Positions 27,988 through 44,324 of a DNA stretch of 47,010 nucleotides are shown here, one piece after another (position 1 is the stretch's first letter; each line of letters opens with the position of its first letter). The translations under genes were made by a program, and so were the position numbers. A model generated the notes under the pieces. That model saw nothing but the letters and a program-made list of their open reading frames with translations, did no database searches and was not told where the DNA came from. Source of the stretch: a virus. Location: the UHGV virus genome UHGV-1364479; one strand, 5' to 3'.

Positions 27988-28830
27988 ATGAGCTTATCAA
28001 TGATTCAAAAACCAAAACCATCAGCACCAATCATAACATTGGTTGGCACTCCCGGGGTGGGTAAGACAACTCTTGCGGCGCTATTCCCAAATCCAGTTTT
28101 TATTCAGGCAGAAGAGATAACCGGTGTTTTTGATGACTGGGATGATGAAAAGAAACCTGATTCATTTCCTGTTCTGAAGCGCGCTGACGCTAAACGCAAA
28201 ACAAGCACAAAGGATGATTTGCTATCACAGCTACGAGCATTAATTACTGAGGAACATAATTACAAAACGCTTGTAATTGACTCAATCACAAGCCTGCATT
28301 CAATGTTTGAACATGAGGTTTGTGAAAACTACGGTGTTGACAACGTTGGTTCTGCTGCTGGTGGTTACAACAAAGGATATATTGTTGTTTCTGAAATGCA
28401 CGCTGAAATAATAAATGCATGTAAGTATCTTCGCAAAGAAAAAGGGATGAGCATTATTTATCTTGCACACGCAGGTGTTAAAAAGATGAAGAATCGCCCT
28501 GATGCTGATGAATACACTGTTTACACACTTGACATGCATGACGCTTCAGTTTCTGGTTATGTGAATTTGAGTGATGCTGTTATTTACATCAGAAATGAGG
28601 AGTTTGTGAAAGGTACTGAGACTGATAAAAAAGGTCAGGTCACCAAGTTTGGTAAGGTCGTCCAGACTGGTCAGCGAGTTCTTATCACATCTGGTGACGG
28701 TCGAGTTGGGTATGTTAATGCAAAAAACAGATACAACCTTGAGCCTGAAATTCCTTTTGAAAAGGGTGAGAACCCACTTTTGAGTGAGATTAAATATTAT
28801 GCATCTCTACGAGATAACGAAACAGCTTAA
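27988..28830 (+). CDS. Sak4-like RecA-fold recombination ATPase (AAA_24)
   Basis: 280 aa; Walker A LVGTPGVGKTTLAALF; Walker B LVIDSIT. Confidence 0.65.
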   Translation: MSLSMIQKPKPSAPIITLVGTPGVGKTTLAALFPNPVFIQAEEITGVFDDWDDEKKPDSFPVLKRADAKRKTSTKDDLLSQLRALITEEHNYKTLVIDSITSLHSMFEHEVCENYGVDNVGSAAGGYNKGYIVVSEMHAEIINACKYLRKEKGMSIIYLAHAGVKKMKNRPDADEYTVYTLDMHDASVSGYVNLSDAVIYIRNEEFVKGTETDKKGQVTKFGKVVQTGQRVLITSGDGRVGYVNAKNRYNLEPEIPFEKGENPLLSEIKYYASLRDNETA

Positions 28831-29278
28831 TGAATTGCTGGCTATGGAAGATATTCCACGGGAGCAGATTGAAGATACCATCAATCTTATTGAAGAGGAG
28901 TTTGAAGGAAAGGCTGAAATGGTTGCTGCTTACATTCGTGAGCTTGAAGCTGATGAGTCTGGACTAAAGTCAGAGATTGACCGTCTTTCTGAGCGTAAGC
29001 GTGTTTTAGTTTCGAAGATTGATAATCTTAAAGATTATCTTCGTCAGAACATGATGGCTTCAGGAAAGACGAATATCAAAGGTAAGTTGTTCAGTATCAC
29101 ACTTGGCAAACCATCACCAGTTCTTGATGTGTTTGTTCCTGTTGAGCAGCTTCCTGAGCAGTACCGTGTTGTGAAAGTGTCGGCAGATAACGCAGCGATT
29201 AAAAATGCGATTAAAGCCGGGATTGAAATTAAGGGTTGTGCCATCACAGATGGCAAACCGAAACTGATCATCAAATAA
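28799..29278 (+). CDS. putative Gp157-family protein (Sak4 companion), coiled coil
   Basis: ORF 28784..29278; helical, charged; position directly after Sak4. Confidence 0.35.
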   Translation: MHLYEITKQLNELLAMEDIPREQIEDTINLIEEEFEGKAEMVAAYIRELEADESGLKSEIDRLSERKRVLVSKIDNLKDYLRQNMMASGKTNIKGKLFSITLGKPSPVLDVFVPVEQLPEQYRVVKVSADNAAIKNAIKAGIEIKGCAITDGKPKLIIK

Positions 29279-29295: not shown

Positions 29296-29817
29296 ATGGG
29301 TTTCTGGAATCTTTCTGACGGTAAAGCTGTTGAATCTAAATCTGAATTTGAACTGGGTGGTGGTTTCGAAGTAATTCCTGATGGTAGCCGTGTTCTTGCT
29401 GCAGTTGAAGAATGTAAAGACGACCAGTGGGAAGGCGAGCGATTCTTCAATCTTAAGTGGCGAATCCTTGATGGTGAGTATAAAAATCGCATCATCTTCC
29501 AGAAGCTGAAAGTATTTAGCTCAAAAGAAAAGCAGCGAGACAATGCTATCACTATGCTTGCAGCAATTGACGCAAACGCTGGTGGCAAGCTGATGGCATC
29601 AGGAAAAGAGCCGACTGATTTTGCTATTGCCAGTGCGCTTGCAAATCGCCCGATGATTCTTCTTCTGCGAGTTTGGGAATCTGAGGATAAGCAAAAAACT
29701 GGTAACTATGTGGCTGGTGTATTTGGTCGTCAACAGACAAAAGCAGCACCTGCTCCTAAGCAATCATCGCCGTCTAACGAGCCTCCGATGGATTTTGATG
29801 ACGATATTCCGTTTTGA
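29296..29817 (+). CDS. putative ssDNA-binding protein with host-type SSB C-terminal tip
   Basis: 173 aa from ATG 29296 (RBS GAGAGGA); last 14 aa SNEPPMDFDDDIPF identical to E. coli SSB C-terminus, preceded by Ala/Pro/Gln-rich linker. Confidence 0.5.
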   Translation: MGFWNLSDGKAVESKSEFELGGGFEVIPDGSRVLAAVEECKDDQWEGERFFNLKWRILDGEYKNRIIFQKLKVFSSKEKQRDNAITMLAAIDANAGGKLMASGKEPTDFAIASALANRPMILLLRVWESEDKQKTGNYVAGVFGRQQTKAAPAPKQSSPSNEPPMDFDDDIPF

Positions 29818-29835
29818 TGATTTGATGTTTATTTA

Positions 29836-29860: not shown

Positions 29861-29874
29861 AATTGGAGTTTTAT

Positions 29875-30252
29875 ATGTACGAAGTTATCTGTGATTACTG
29901 CAATATTGCGACAAGACTAGCTAAAGGGAGTGAAATTTACCCACACAGACCAGACCTTTCTGCTCTTAATTTTTATCTCTGTGATTCTTGCGGGGCTTAT
30001 GTTGGTTGCCACAAAAATGGTGATGGCGAAAGACCTCTTGGAAGGGTGGCTAATGAAGAATTAAGGAAGGCAAAAAGCAAAGCACATGCTGCATTTGATC
30101 CCTTATGGAAATCAGGAAAAATGTCGCGAGGTGCTGCTTACTCTGCATTAGCTAGTTCGATGGGAATAAAAAAAGATAAATGCCACATAGGAATGTTTGA
30201 TGTTAAACAATGCGAGTATGTTGTCGAGTGGTGCAAGGAGTTTTGTTTATGA
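29875..30252 (+). CDS. hypothetical Zn-finger protein, about 125 aa
   Basis: ORF 29863..30252; ATG 29875 after GGAG; CDYC...CDSC motifs. Confidence 0.5.
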   Translation: MYEVICDYCNIATRLAKGSEIYPHRPDLSALNFYLCDSCGAYVGCHKNGDGERPLGRVANEELRKAKSKAHAAFDPLWKSGKMSRGAAYSALASSMGIKKDKCHIGMFDVKQCEYVVEWCKEFCL

Positions 30253-32114
30253 AATACACGCTAAGGCCATACCAACAGGAAGCTGTTGATTCAGCTATGG
30301 CACACATTCGCAGCACCATCTCATCATGCGTTATCATCCTACCGACAGGTGCAGGAAAATCTATGGTTGTAGCAGAACTTGCATCTCGTATTTATGGTAT
30401 GAGCAAAAAGCGAGTTTTGTGCATAGCTCCCACAGCGGAACTCGTCACACAAAATCGCGCTAAATACCTTCTCACCGGAGAACCAGCCAGCATGTTCAGT
30501 GCAAAGGCTGGACCAAAGAACCTGCGTCATCCGGTTGTTTTTGGTTCACCAGTTACAATCAAGAACTCAATAGAGATGTTTGGTGATAAGTATGGTGCTG
30601 TCATTATTGATGAGTGTGATGGAATAACACCAACCATTAAATTTATTATTAATGAGATGAAGCGCCGCAATCCAAAGCTGCGTGTTATTGGGATGACTGC
30701 TACGCCTTATCGCCTTGGAACTGGATACATCTACAAAGAGCACTACCTCGACGGTCCTACAGATGAAGAAACAGCCATAGACCCATATTACGACAAAGTC
30801 GTTTATGAGCTTGAAGCTAAATTTCTCATCGAAAATGGATATCTTACGCCACCAGTTACAGAGCCTGTTTTTGACGAGTATGATACGTCTTGTCTTGAAA
30901 AGGATAAGTTTGGTCGGTACACAACAGCTTCAGTTGAAAAGGCGATGGTTGGCAAGGGAAGGAAAACATCACGTATTGTTGAAGATATTATCCGTCGCTC
31001 TGTTAATCGGCGCGGAACGATGATTTTTGCCAGCACCAAGAAACACGCTATGGAGATAATGGAGTCACTTCCTCCCGGGTCTTATAGTTATGTTTTTGGT
31101 GATATGCCAACAGCAGATCGCAACAAGGCAATATCAGACTTCAAGGAACAAAAAGTTAAATATATCGTTAACCAGAATATACTTACTGTAGGGGTGGATG
31201 TTCCTCATTGTGATCATATAGCAGTAATGAGAGCAACAGAGTCGCCAAGACTCTATCAGCAAATAATTGGCAGAGGGACGCGTCTTTATGAAGGAAAGGA
31301 AGACTTTCTTGTTAGCGATTACGCCGGAAATATTCAACGCCACTTTTCAGAAACTGGAGACTTGTTTACTCCAGAAATAAAAGCAACAAGGAAAAAACCA
31401 TCTGTGCCAATGGATGTAAAATGCCCTCTTTGTGGCTTTATTAATGAATTTGGTGTGCGCCCCAACCCTGAAAATCTTGAAGTTGACAAGGAAGGTTACT
31501 GGCTTGATTTGGCTGGTGATAGGGTGATGATTGACATTTTTGATAAATCAGGTGAAAAAATTGGAAGCAAGCCTATGCCTGCTCATTTTGGGAGGAGGTG
31601 TAAAAACTACGTTATGCACGGGCCATTAAGGGAAATGCATAGGTGTACTTATAAGTGGTCGGTGAAAGAGTGTCTTGATTGTGGATTTGAAAATGATATA
31701 GCGGCAAGAAACTGCACATCATGCGGTGCTGAAATCATTGACCCCAACCAAAAGCTAAAGGAAGAAGCTGACAGGCTTGATTCTTCTCCTTATGCAACCA
31801 AGCAATCAAGCGTAACCATGATGAACATCATGAAGCATTACGTTTCAAGCGGTGAAGATTTGGTGCACGTAAAATTTGCTATTGAACAGAAACCATTTTT
31901 TGTTAGCAAGTTCTACAATCCAAACTCTGAGAAGGAATGGATGAAGAAGGAGTGGGAAGAGTTTTGTGGGAGGTGCTTTGGTGAATCTGACATGTCAATT
32001 GATGACGCAATAGCAAAAAGAGATGAAGCTGTCGCGCCATCTGTGATCATGTTCAGAAGAGATAAAGGAAGTAAATATTTCAACGTTAAAGGCATGTATT
32101 GGGGGGTATTATGA
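30249..32114 (+). CDS. superfamily 2 DNA helicase (DEAD/DEAH-like) with C-terminal Zn-ribbons
   Basis: Motif I ILPTGAGKS, motif II IIDECD, motif III MTATP, motif VI QIIGRGTR; ATGA-coupled to previous gene. Confidence 0.8.
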   Translation: MKYTLRPYQQEAVDSAMAHIRSTISSCVIILPTGAGKSMVVAELASRIYGMSKKRVLCIAPTAELVTQNRAKYLLTGEPASMFSAKAGPKNLRHPVVFGSPVTIKNSIEMFGDKYGAVIIDECDGITPTIKFIINEMKRRNPKLRVIGMTATPYRLGTGYIYKEHYLDGPTDEETAIDPYYDKVVYELEAKFLIENGYLTPPVTEPVFDEYDTSCLEKDKFGRYTTASVEKAMVGKGRKTSRIVEDIIRRSVNRRGTMIFASTKKHAMEIMESLPPGSYSYVFGDMPTADRNKAISDFKEQKVKYIVNQNILTVGVDVPHCDHIAVMRATESPRLYQQIIGRGTRLYEGKEDFLVSDYAGNIQRHFSETGDLFTPEIKATRKKPSVPMDVKCPLCGFINEFGVRPNPENLEVDKEGYWLDLAGDRVMIDIFDKSGEKIGSKPMPAHFGRRCKNYVMHGPLREMHRCTYKWSVKECLDCGFENDIAARNCTSCGAEIIDPNQKLKEEADRLDSSPYATKQSSVTMMNIMKHYVSSGEDLVHVKFAIEQKPFFVSKFYNPNSEKEWMKKEWEEFCGRCFGESDMSIDDAIAKRDEAVAPSVIMFRRDKGSKYFNVKGMYWGVL

Positions 32115-32566
32115 TTTTTCCAGAAGGCGTTAAGGTATATGGCGATTTAGATTACAGAAACAAAAAGTGCCCGTCAGAAGATGCCGAACTGGAGACTTTT
32201 GTTAATCAGATAAGGAAGCTATATCCTGACTTTGCAAGAGTTATGATTCATGTTCCAAATGAAGGCAAGCGTAAAGGGTATGAAGTTGAAAATCTGAAGA
32301 AAAAGGGCGCGTTAAACTTCGGTGCCTCGGACATCATCATAAACGGAAAGCAATCATTCGTTATGGAGATGAAGAGAATGGATCACACTTTATCAAAATG
32401 GCAGCCTGGACAAATGGCATACCTTAAGGCAGCAAAAGAATTGGATTCATTTGCGTGTGTATGTCTCGGTTGGGAAGCGGCGATGATGGCATTTAATGAC
32501 TGGAGAGCAATAAATTACCCAAACTATAAAAAACCATCAGAGTCATTGATATTTGATGGTTTTTAG
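32111..32566 (+). CDS. VRR-NUC-type PD-(D/E)xK nuclease; in-frame TAG followed by 40 further sense codons to TGA 32684-32686
   Basis: ORF 32099..32566, ATG 32111 ATGA-coupled after GGGGGG; motif GASDIIINGKQSFVMEMKR; extension encodes QQRQQSGQQPQRQQQQQPKQQSPQGGNNPPMDFDDSIPF. Confidence 0.6.
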   Translation: MIFPEGVKVYGDLDYRNKKCPSEDAELETFVNQIRKLYPDFARVMIHVPNEGKRKGYEVENLKKKGALNFGASDIIINGKQSFVMEMKRMDHTLSKWQPGQMAYLKAAKELDSFACVCLGWEAAMMAFNDWRAINYPNYKKPSESLIFDGF

Positions 32567-32695
32567 CAACAACGCCAGCAATCAGGCCAACAACCGCAAC
32601 GACAGCAACAGCAGCAACCAAAACAACAAAGCCCACAAGGAGGCAATAATCCTCCGATGGACTTTGACGATTCAATACCCTTCTGATGATAAAAC

Positions 32696-32722
32696 TAACC
32701 CCGCCGAAGCGGGGTTTTTGTT
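32696..32722. terminator. bidirectional terminator (AACCCCGC-CGAA-GCGGGGTT + T5)
   Basis: Between convergent replication operon and tailspike gene. Confidence 0.65.
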
Positions 32723-34592
32723 AATCATTCTCAGTATTATACATCAATACAACTGGACCTGTATATGTTGCCGTAGATGCCAGGTTAGTCATGTTGTAAG
32801 GTCGCATTCTGACTTGGCTTGTGCTTATTAATCTTGCCTTAAGAAGCCATGTATCATCATTTGTGTTTCCAGATGTTTCCTGTATTCCAACAGAAGATGC
32901 TGGCCTGAATTGGTCTGGAATGTCTCTTGTTACTACCCTTGCAGTGTCTGTGCTCGTTAATGTAAAAAATTCCCTCCCTGATGTCGAAATTGCCGTGCAA
33001 TTTTCAGTCACATTATTTCTAATGTCAGGGCGTGACGTTCTACCTTCTGATATGGTTTTCATTCGAATAACACTTGCTGACATTGTTACTCCGGTAGTGT
33101 TGCGAAAACGGCAATCTGTAACTTTTACCTGAAATGGGTTTGAAATCATGTTTAATGCTATACCATGATTTGCCACCAACCAATTGCAGGAACTGATGGT
33201 GTAACGTGCTCCGTCAACGCTTGACTCAACCTGACACCCATCAAAATAACATCCTACAAACTGGTCTCCATTTGACATAATGGAAACCTTGCCTTTCGTT
33301 GAGTCAGTCTCTTGGTGTGGGTAGAAGTGGCAATTAACAAAACTTCCAGCACCTTTCCTCAGATATGCAACATCTTTAACTTGTTGGCTGATGATAAGTC
33401 CAGTGTAATTATTGTCATAATTATTTATATCCAACGCCACACCATTCACAATATCGACAGGGATGTCGGCTTCCCATACAGGCTGCTGTCCGATGTGCGT
33501 CAATGCCATATTCAATTCATGAGGCGGGTAAGATACATAATCAGTTTTTACACCATACTCACGATATCTTGATAGCACTCCACCAACAATAGGCATCTTC
33601 CAGAAATCGTAAGCAAGAATGCAACCGTCAGCTTTCCAGTTACCATCCAGAACTGGGTTTTCGATACGGATACCGTTTAGCGGGCGCGTCCCTGTTACCA
33701 GCTTGAATTCTAATATAGCACGACCAGCAGTGAATCCATCTAGCGCGGTAATGGTAGGGTTTAATAGCGTAAAGTTGAAAGTGTCAACAAAATCCAATGG
33801 CTTAGTCGTATAGTAAACACCCTGAGACATATTTAGAATAGACCCGCCGAGGTTTAACATAGTGGGATCATCTTTACTTGATGGGAAGTATGTCTGTCGC
33901 TTTCTGGTTAGCACGCTGTCACGCCACAAATCAAGAGCTGCCGAGCTGTCGAAGGTTGGGTCATCTGGCACTGCACCATAGTTTCGTGGATCGTCAATAG
34001 AATATGCTGATAGATACCCAACGCACACCCATTCATCATCTGGAGATGAGTTCGGTGGCACAGTTATCGTCCCAGATATTGGAGAGTAATACATGTTATC
34101 AAGTGGATTCAAAAGTGCAGATTCATTAGCTGTCGCTGAACCTCCAGTTGAAAATGTATCACCATATATTTTTTTGTATTCAAGCGTCATAAAATATGAC
34201 TCAGCCCACTGTCTTGCAGTGGCATCACCAACACTCAACCATTTCCCCAACCCAACACCACCAGAAGTTTCAGGTGTTGAGCCAGCAGGAACGGATTTTG
34301 GTAGTTCGCCGTCCCAACGATAATATTCTCCGGTAGCCTCATAACGCAAAACCTGATTAGGCAAAGTCAGTGTCGCACCATCTTCAAAGCTGTCGATAGT
34401 GATGTAGCCATAGTTGCGTATAGCTTCTTCTGCGGCGTGCTGAAATCCAGCAATTGTCCAGCGTCGCACGCCGAAGCGATCGGTATAGTAGTGGTTGTTA
34501 CCAGTTACAACCTCGTCAATCTTCCCGGCATTAAATTTCAGGTCGCGCGGGTCTTCGCTTGGGATTGGATTATTTGTTGGTACGGTAGCCAT
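32721..34592 (-). CDS. tailspike / tail fiber with beta-helix depolymerase-like body
   Basis: 623 aa, last gene of tail operon; Asn/Gly/Thr/Val-rich repetitive beta-type sequence; N-terminal about 120 aa particle-binding domain. Confidence 0.65.
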   Translation of the reverse strand: MATVPTNNPIPSEDPRDLKFNAGKIDEVVTGNNHYYTDRFGVRRWTIAGFQHAAEEAIRNYGYITIDSFEDGATLTLPNQVLRYEATGEYYRWDGELPKSVPAGSTPETSGGVGLGKWLSVGDATARQWAESYFMTLEYKKIYGDTFSTGGSATANESALLNPLDNMYYSPISGTITVPPNSSPDDEWVCVGYLSAYSIDDPRNYGAVPDDPTFDSSAALDLWRDSVLTRKRQTYFPSSKDDPTMLNLGGSILNMSQGVYYTTKPLDFVDTFNFTLLNPTITALDGFTAGRAILEFKLVTGTRPLNGIRIENPVLDGNWKADGCILAYDFWKMPIVGGVLSRYREYGVKTDYVSYPPHELNMALTHIGQQPVWEADIPVDIVNGVALDINNYDNNYTGLIISQQVKDVAYLRKGAGSFVNCHFYPHQETDSTKGKVSIMSNGDQFVGCYFDGCQVESSVDGARYTISSCNWLVANHGIALNMISNPFQVKVTDCRFRNTTGVTMSASVIRMKTISEGRTSRPDIRNNVTENCTAISTSGREFFTLTSTDTARVVTRDIPDQFRPASSVGIQETSGNTNDDTWLLKARLISTSQVRMRPYNMTNLASTATYTGPVVLMYNTEND

Positions 34593-44168: not shown

Positions 44169-44245
44169 GGACGCGTAGCTTAATTGGTTAAAGCAACCGA
44201 CTCATAATCGGCTGATTGAAGGTTCAAATCCGTCCGTGTCCACCA
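44169..44245 (+). tRNA. tRNA-Met (anticodon CAU), CCA encoded
   Basis: Cloverleaf: acceptor GGACGCG/CGTGTCC, D-stem GCTT/AAGC, anticodon loop CTCATAA, T-loop TTCAAAT; one mismatch each in anticodon and T stems. Confidence 0.6.
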
Positions 44246-44251
44246 AATTAA

Positions 44252-44324
44252 ACACCATTAGCTCAACGGATAGAGCAGTAGCCTTCTAAGCTATTGGTTG
44301 CAGGTTCGAGTCCTGCATGGTGTG
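44252..44324 (+). tRNA. tRNA-Arg (anticodon UCU)
   Basis: Acceptor ACACCAT/ATGGTGT perfect, D-stem GCTC/GAGC, anticodon loop CTTCTAA, T-stem GCAGG/CCTGC, T-loop TTCGAGT. Confidence 0.7.

Follow-up and report, generated by a model that had tools for sequence, protein, structure and literature searches.

The 47,010-nucleotide stretch of the virus genome UHGV-1364479 analyzed here (hereafter "the window") carries a gene for a predicted PD-(D/E)xK nuclease whose stop codon is followed, in the same reading frame, by what looks like the C-terminus of a bacterial-type single-stranded DNA-binding protein (SSB). Our comparison with related phages indicates that this stretch, at positions 32567–32686 on the plus strand, is very probably a non-coding relic of an ssb gene at a mosaic junction, and not the tail of a nuclease. 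The nuclease gene (32111–32566, plus strand; 151 amino acids (aa); PHROG 824, profile match 4e-37) starts at an ATG at 32111 and stops at a TAG at 32564–32566, and the same frame stays open up to a TGA at 32684–32686. These coordinates agree with those of an earlier, sequence-only reading of the window, which had proposed that the TAG interrupts an ancestral nuclease with an SSB tail. It had counted 40 sense codons in the extension; the continuation is in frame as described, and the number of codons is 39 (QQRQQSGQQPQRQQQQQPKQQSPQGGNNPPMDFDDSIPF), followed by the TGA at 32684–32686, a second TGA, and a TAA. Their translation is a Gln/Pro/Gly-rich linker ending in the acidic tip PPMDFDDSIPF.

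The SSB resemblance extends to the DNA level. In a megablast comparison of the region with 50,697 phage records, window positions 32565–32723 matched annotated ssb 3′ ends at E-values of ~1e-46 to 1e-54, so the resemblance reflects homology and not chance, and the earlier identification of the tail as an SSB linker plus acidic tip stands. Altogether, 136 phage records matched the region: 7 displayed the nuclease-plus-tail layout, and the rest matched only 32565–32723. Tail-only matches, among the 31 listed, all fell under annotated ssb genes or in unannotated records. An intact ssb gene occupies the syntenic position, i.e., before the same terminator and convergent tail-fiber gene, in >100 Jersey-like phages. 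For instance, the E. coli phage ASO78B has the order helicase, 141-aa protein, exodeoxyribonuclease, recombinase, ssb, bidirectional terminator, and convergent tail fiber, and Klebsiella phage ZX4 follows the same order; the 141-aa protein of ASO78B is a homolog of the window nuclease (28.7% identity, PHROG 824 in common).

DNA homology between the window and ASO78B begins at 32567, the first base past the TAG, and runs through the tip, the stops, and the terminator at 91.5% identity, from which it follows that the 120 nt are the 3′ end of an ssb gene. The intact ssb end of another relative (L030) is 92.4% identical to the relic over 157 nt. When the full ASO78B SSB was searched against the window with tblastn, only its residues 148–161 matched, at 32642–32683, and no canonical SSB OB fold was detected in the window. 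Of the features of a bacterial-type SSB (PF00436), the stretch thus has the linker and the tip but neither the OB fold nor a start codon and ribosome-binding site of its own for a full open reading frame (ORF). By these comparisons, the first ~120 ssb codons are missing from the window phage, together with the exonuclease and recombinase genes. Set against the ssb genes of Jersey-like (Guernseyvirinae-type) siphophages of Salmonella, E. coli, and Klebsiella, e.g., ASO78B_063 and vB_KpnS_ZX4 QTH79997.1 (~90–92% DNA identity), the relic is alike in linker, PPMDFDD(S/D)IPF tip, stops, terminator, and position relative to the tail fiber, whereas it lacks a start codon and the OB-fold domain (~120 codons) and begins directly after the stop of another gene. 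A literature search returned no description of a VRR-NUC–SSB-tail fusion or of such an ssb relic.

Host ssb was also considered as a direct donor of the stub and set aside, as no match to chromosomal ssb was found at blastn sensitivity. A scan of genome contigs for the junction pattern returned a single match, in an Acidobacteriaceae metagenome-assembled genome, where ~1 would be expected by chance for a 19-base pattern in 596 Gb. By eye only, a possible microhomology at the junction can be made out: the motif CAACCAC, present in the ssb linker, recurs at the 3′ ends of some nuclease genes.

At the upstream edge of the relic, the stop codon is the native one of the nuclease. A stop codon was present at the end of the nuclease in 27 of 27 relatives examined, as TAG, TAA, or TGA depending on the lineage. 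Of the 12 copies with a 39-codon stub, 10 use TAG and 2 use TAA; in a lineage of Klebsiella-type phages with a 24-codon stub (nuclease ~65% identical) it is TGA, with TAA in phage RSU-F4K5; and further lineages use TAG, TGA, or TAA. All 151–152-aa nucleases end in [I/L/F]-x-[I/F]-[D/E/N]-x-F, and this C-terminus is therefore the native one; the window protein ends LIFDGF directly before the TAG. In a database of 5.8 billion proteins, the nuclease homologs formed 57 clusters of 119–152 aa, and no extended homolog was found among them.

Past the nuclease stop, relatives display a graded series of decay, from stubs of 39 or 24 codons, through one of 15 codons that is out of frame and a remnant of 17 nt, to complete loss. 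The 39-codon stub is open and in frame in 10 of 12 copies, including the window; the lesions are an internal CAG-to-TAG change in one genome (L011) and a CGA-to-TGA change plus a 1-nt deletion in a 46-kb contig (L112). The 24-codon stub is in frame as well and homologous to the end of ZX4-type ssb, and two of its copies lack two tip residues (F-D). It occurs in IMG/VR contigs and in Klebsiella phage RSU-F4K5 (L014–L021 and L023) as a 22–24-codon ORF (MKPSNTQKPPANEPPMDFDDDIPF), with an ATG directly after the TGA or TAA of the nuclease in 8 of 9 copies and an ATT in the other. Elsewhere the stub amounts to 15 codons in the +1 frame relative to the nuclease (L027; QQTPNSPPMEDDIPF) or to a 17-nt vestige before the terminator (L024–26; CCTCTAACCACCAAAAAC). 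In L028, Escherichia phage ECO95 1-6-1 (L003), and gmqsjt-1, the terminator directly follows the nuclease stop; an extension counts as absent in L003, L109, and L024–28. The window stub itself has an Asn just before PPMDF, in place of a near-invariant Glu; 79 of 80 intact SSBs carry Glu or Asp at this position. Overall, a canonical tip is retained in 13 of 22 stubs versus 68 of 81 intact genes (Fisher p = 0.018, on copies that are not independent), a difference that may reflect relaxed constraint.

The 120 nt are therefore homologous to a syntenic intact gene and, in some copies, disabled, truncated, or lost, as befits a relic. With a stop conserved in every relative examined, no fused homolog among the clusters searched, and a stub that is out of frame, broken, or absent in some relatives, the ancestral nuclease with an SSB tail envisaged by the sequence-only reading is not supported by the comparative data. 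Gene fragments at module boundaries are a general phenomenon of phage mosaicism, in which a partial gene lies between an exchanged module and a conserved flank and its copies are variously decayed. The same is seen here, except that the window relic is unusually ORF-like, being overwritten from functional alleles, and in frame with the upstream gene. As a whole the feature is an ordinary one for phage genomes, though a clean example of recombination mimicking purifying selection.

The tip, viewed in isolation, would point to purifying selection. Across nine aligned copies of the 39-codon type, differences in the tip are almost only synonymous, with 10 of 11 third positions variable and diversities of 0.066, 0.045, and 0.497 at codon positions 1, 2, and 3. 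The nuclease, which is under purifying selection, displays corresponding values (pi) of 0.013, 0.015, and 0.130, and its third-position diversity is ≤0.10 over the last ~90 nt of the gene. Since third-position diversity in the tip greatly exceeds that of the adjacent nuclease, the variation in the tip must be older than the common ancestry of these genomes, i.e., imported. Diversity at codon positions 1 and 2 of the tip is low, yet recombination with functional alleles confounds a reading of this as selection on the stub.

Traces of such import can be seen in individual genomes, whose stubs resemble intact ssb alleles (up to 100% identity) more closely than they resemble one another. A 116-nt stretch of L018, comprising the stub and the DNA that follows it, matches the end of the intact L053 ssb at 100% identity, and the stub of L020 is 98.3% identical to L050. 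The stub of phage YX3973 is chimeric: it begins with sequence of 90% identity to Jersey-type ssb, whereas the final 84 nt match ZX4 ssb at 100%, within a block common to YX3973 and ZX4 that starts 40 nt into the stub and runs for 2460 nt through the tail-fiber gene. For the window stub, too, the best match is an intact allele, that of L030 (92.4%), and no other stub exceeds 88.5%. The sequence-only reading had named alignment with relatives as the comparison that could overturn it, i.e., a stop at the same site followed by sequence without codon-level conservation of the tip. The first of these was found; the tip still looks codon-conserved, and import from ssb explains why.

Given these patterns, we propose that a Jersey-like recombination set (exonuclease, recombinase, and ssb) would have been lost or replaced in the window lineage, a direction and mechanism that we infer, and that in this rearrangement the nuclease stop would have come to lie immediately before a mid-linker position of ssb. 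The nuclease would then terminate at its own stop and leave the stub untranslated, while homologous recombination with ssb-bearing phages would keep overwriting the stub with sequence selected in the donors; where such overwriting does not occur, the stub would decay or be deleted. On this model, the stub persists and stays ORF-like because the ssb end and terminator form the conserved left flank of an exchangeable tail-fiber cassette.

Several observations weigh against an ssb relic. Two independent-looking junction types, of 39 and 24 codons, each begin right at the nuclease stop and preserve its frame; for two of three junction types to be in frame, the chance probability is ~0.26, which is weak evidence either way. 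The 24-codon stub starts with an ATG right after the stop in nearly every copy (8/9). As the nuclease 3′ ends are nearly invariant within each group, however, in-frame junctions and the conserved ATG carry little weight. In addition, the majority of stubs remain open and have kept an intact tip, and a UAG followed by C is a weak termination context in E. coli. Finally, that the stub goes untranslated is itself something we infer.

Among other explanations, the stub may be selected as DNA or RNA, either as a homology arm for the acquisition of tail-fiber cassettes or as a 3′-untranslated spacer before the terminator. Blocks of homology to ssb-bearing phages begin within the stub and extend across the tail-fiber gene, and the same fragment accompanies a tailspike in an unrelated prophage, both as a homology arm would have it. 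Close relatives nevertheless manage with the terminator alone, and persistence by repeated re-import needs no selection on the stub, so that we regard a selected role in nucleic acid form as unlikely.

Translation of the stub is less probable still. Taking both routes together, we consider low-level expression, either by read-through or as a 24-aa reinitiation peptide in the Klebsiella-phage lineage, to be very unlikely. Read-through of the nuclease stop, whether programmed or low-level, would yield a 191-aa nuclease with an SSB linker and tip, through which the enzyme would be recruited to the host proteins that bind SSB, or would imitate SSB itself. In support, the window stub continues the nuclease frame without interruption, as do 10 of the 12 stubs of its type, and the UAG-CAA-CCA context in relatives resembles UAG-CAR-YYA, the read-through motif of eukaryotic viruses, with UAG-C being a weak terminator. 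Programmed amber read-through, as suggested by the sequence-only reading, is contradicted by a stop whose identity varies by lineage and by an extension that is not always in frame or open. Instead of one leaky stop in a conserved context, all three stop codons occur, so that no single mechanism or context applies, and the extension does not behave throughout as a continuous, in-frame coding sequence subject to purifying selection in its own right: the L027 stub is out of frame, L011 and L112 carry internal stops or a frameshift, and several close relatives with an intact nuclease have no stub. Furthermore, no fused homolog exists among the clusters searched, the conservation of the tip is imported, and the window encodes no suppressor tRNA, its only tRNAs being Met(CAT) and Arg(TCT). 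Altogether, a read-through product is most improbable. The two tRNA genes adjoin each other at 44169–44324, and TAG terminates 2 of 49 long ORFs in the window, which is unremarkable. Frameshifting was also considered as the source of the tail and rejected: the tail lies in the zero frame, and a −1 or +1 shift could not yield it.

Similarly improbable is translation of the stub alone as a micropeptide, i.e., as an SSB-tip decoy competing with host SSB for partner proteins. Termination-reinitiation at TGA-ATG would produce such a peptide, 24 aa long, in the Klebsiella-phage lineage, where 8 of 9 copies do have an ATG next to the stop. The window counterpart would be the 9-codon MDFDDSIPF, from an ATG at 32657–32659. 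The sequence-only reading had correctly described this ATG as the sole in-frame start, 9 codons from the end, and no ATG, GTG, or TTG occurs in frame between the TAG at 32564 and the ATG at 32657. It had also stated that no ribosome-binding site precedes it, which has to be amended: a Shine-Dalgarno-like AAGGAGG lies 13 nt upstream (32637–32643; motif and ATG together 32637–32659, plus strand, as read from the sequence). Yet this GGAGG belongs to the codons by which ssb encodes Q-G-G, recurs in the intact ssb genes, and is paired with a downstream CCUCC in the predicted RNA fold. The 39-codon type also has no start codon at its 5′ end; two 24-codon copies are without F-D in the tip and one has ATT for ATG; the near-invariance of the nuclease 3′ ends in the 24-codon group leaves the conservation of the ATG weightless; and stubs are wholly lost in sister lineages.

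A recent CAG-to-TAG nonsense mutation or a sequencing error in a true fusion gene, to which the alignment of the TAG with an intact-ssb linker CAG in one alignment might point, is refuted by the comparative data. All 12 copies of this junction type, each sequenced independently, have the stop, and so do all other lineages; the ...[D/E/N]-x-F ending occurs at the same position in nucleases followed by quite unlike DNA; and no homolog exceeds 152 aa.

If the stub were expressed after all, its SSB tip, whether free or attached to the nuclease, would bind SSB partner proteins of the host (ExoI, RecQ, PriA, chi, and others) and so represent a novel type of phage-encoded decoy for the SSB interactome. 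As an ssb relic, it instead serves as a caution: an in-frame, conserved-looking extension past a stop can be a relic whose apparent purifying selection has been taken over from functional alleles through recombination. Two further points are that tail-fiber cassettes are exchanged among phages whose recombination modules are unrelated, reaching even a P22-like prophage, and that SSB tips behave as movable DNA cassettes, as exemplified by the DUF669-type SSB described below.

The relic is followed by a bidirectional intrinsic terminator (32697–32716, with terminator scan matches on both strands), a G+C-rich hairpin with T-runs on both sides. Phages Sf11 and ASO78B have the identical sequence, and their records give it as a terminator for either strand. 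Beyond it lies a convergent tail-fiber/tailspike gene of 623 codons (32721–34592, minus strand), whose distal (C-terminal) part is a swapped cassette: homology of the window to ASO78B and Sf11 covers the stub and terminator, is lost from 32720 to ~34218, and then resumes. This distal segment (32720–34218) has no close relative among the phage records searched, the best match being the unrelated Escherichia phage P762 (39-kb genome) with 80% identity over 57% of the segment. With its conserved flanks, it looks like a novel receptor-binding cassette, and the ssb end plus terminator forms the left flank of such exchangeable, host-range-determining cassettes.

A decayed and unannotated ssb-3′ fragment was also observed in E. 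coli isolate 602 (NZ_OW968111.1, 1481472–1481566; L114 ~2500–2610). It is 92.6% identical to window positions 32576–32670, has a +1 insertion and a Phe-to-Ser change in the tip, and is located between intS (tRNA-Arg site) and the convergent tailspike gene of an unrelated prophage. The ssb-3′ fragment seems to be carried along with tailspike cassettes.

The window phage has a recombination module of its own, and this module is predicted to include a complete SSB. Upstream of the helicase gene, in place of the exonuclease, recombinase, and ssb genes, lie genes for a Sak4-like RecA-fold annealing protein (27988–28830, plus strand; Pfam AAA_24, 1.8e-27), whose Sf11 homolog is annotated in RefSeq as "Sak4-like ssDNA annealing protein", a Sipho_Gp157 (Gam-like) protein (28784–29278, plus strand; Pfam PF05565, 1.6e-38), and a DUF669-type SSB candidate (29296–29817, plus strand; Pfam DUF669, 1.1e-5; PHROG 9002 "single strand DNA binding protein", 2e-69). 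This candidate SSB ends in PSNEPPMDFDDDIPF (tip PPMDFDDDIPF), a C-terminus identical to that of E. coli SSB and, by its sequence, a working-looking tip. The Sak4-like protein beside a tip-bearing SSB would make a second ssb gene dispensable. Over its last ~59 nt (29765–29823), the candidate gene has ~90% DNA identity to the chromosomal ssb 3′ end, a match found in 5425 of 5426 E. coli genomes. It would seem that this non-canonical DUF669-type SSB of the phage acquired a tip of host type in the form of a DNA cassette.

A comparable pairing of Sak4 with a cognate SSB is reported for phage HK620 (PMC5928155). The predicted window module is alike in that a Sak4-like protein adjoins an SSB-type protein with an acidic tip, and differs in that the window SSB is of the DUF669 type and not PF00436.

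The nuclease itself is fairly described as a predicted, remote VRR-NUC-like PD-(D/E)xK nuclease. The label VRR-NUC given to it by the sequence-only reading is not supported by Pfam: a search with the window protein returned no match, and no VRR_NUC (PF08774) even at E ≤ 10, while VRR_NUC matches were obtained for 3 of 28 homologs at a best E-value of 0.024, below the gathering threshold. Support comes instead from a remote match: a profile of the 28 homologs aligns to the solved VRR-NUC structure PDB 4qbl over the catalytic core (E = 3.8e-5), with the invariant D74, E86, and K88 falling on PDLII...IEIKK (D...ExK). PHROG 824 carries the annotation "function unknown". Compared with the single-domain VRR-NUC nucleases of the 4qbl type, which are of similar size (~145 aa) and have D...ExK in common with the window protein, the 151–152-aa nucleases of enterobacterial phages add a C-terminal extension, the one ending in the [I/L/F]-x-[I/F]-[D/E/N]-x-F pattern.

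The endings of this extension (window 32516–32563 and homologs P0002–P0015) include LIFDGF, IQIDSF, IDIESF, NIIKEF, and ITINHF, and nuclease homologs of 129–148 aa are without it. The C-terminal Phe extension may be a docking motif in its own right, reminiscent of clamp-binding or SSB-tip-like motifs. In Escherichia phage ECO95 1-6-1 (L003, OR845258.1), a GAG-to-TAG change places a premature stop 10 codons early (...KQN*PSSPITISHF*), and the last 10 residues of the nuclease may thus be dispensable, or this unverified record may contain an error.

Immediately upstream, a superfamily-2 DNA helicase gene (30210–32114, plus strand; Pfam ResIII 5.5e-19 and Helicase_C 8.8e-17) overlaps the nuclease start at 32111 by 4 nt at its 3′ end. 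Between the DUF669-type SSB and helicase genes lies a gene for a DUF3268 zinc-finger protein (29863–30252; Pfam 1.1e-37), which is absent or replaced by an unrelated 160-aa ORF in some relatives (L024 and L027), another mosaic point. Lastly, gp12 of phage Sf11 (L001 3657–3839, corresponding to window 32553–32831, plus strand) is a wrong-frame ORF across the ssb relic and terminator, and its record as a "hypothetical protein" is probably a spurious annotation that could be corrected.

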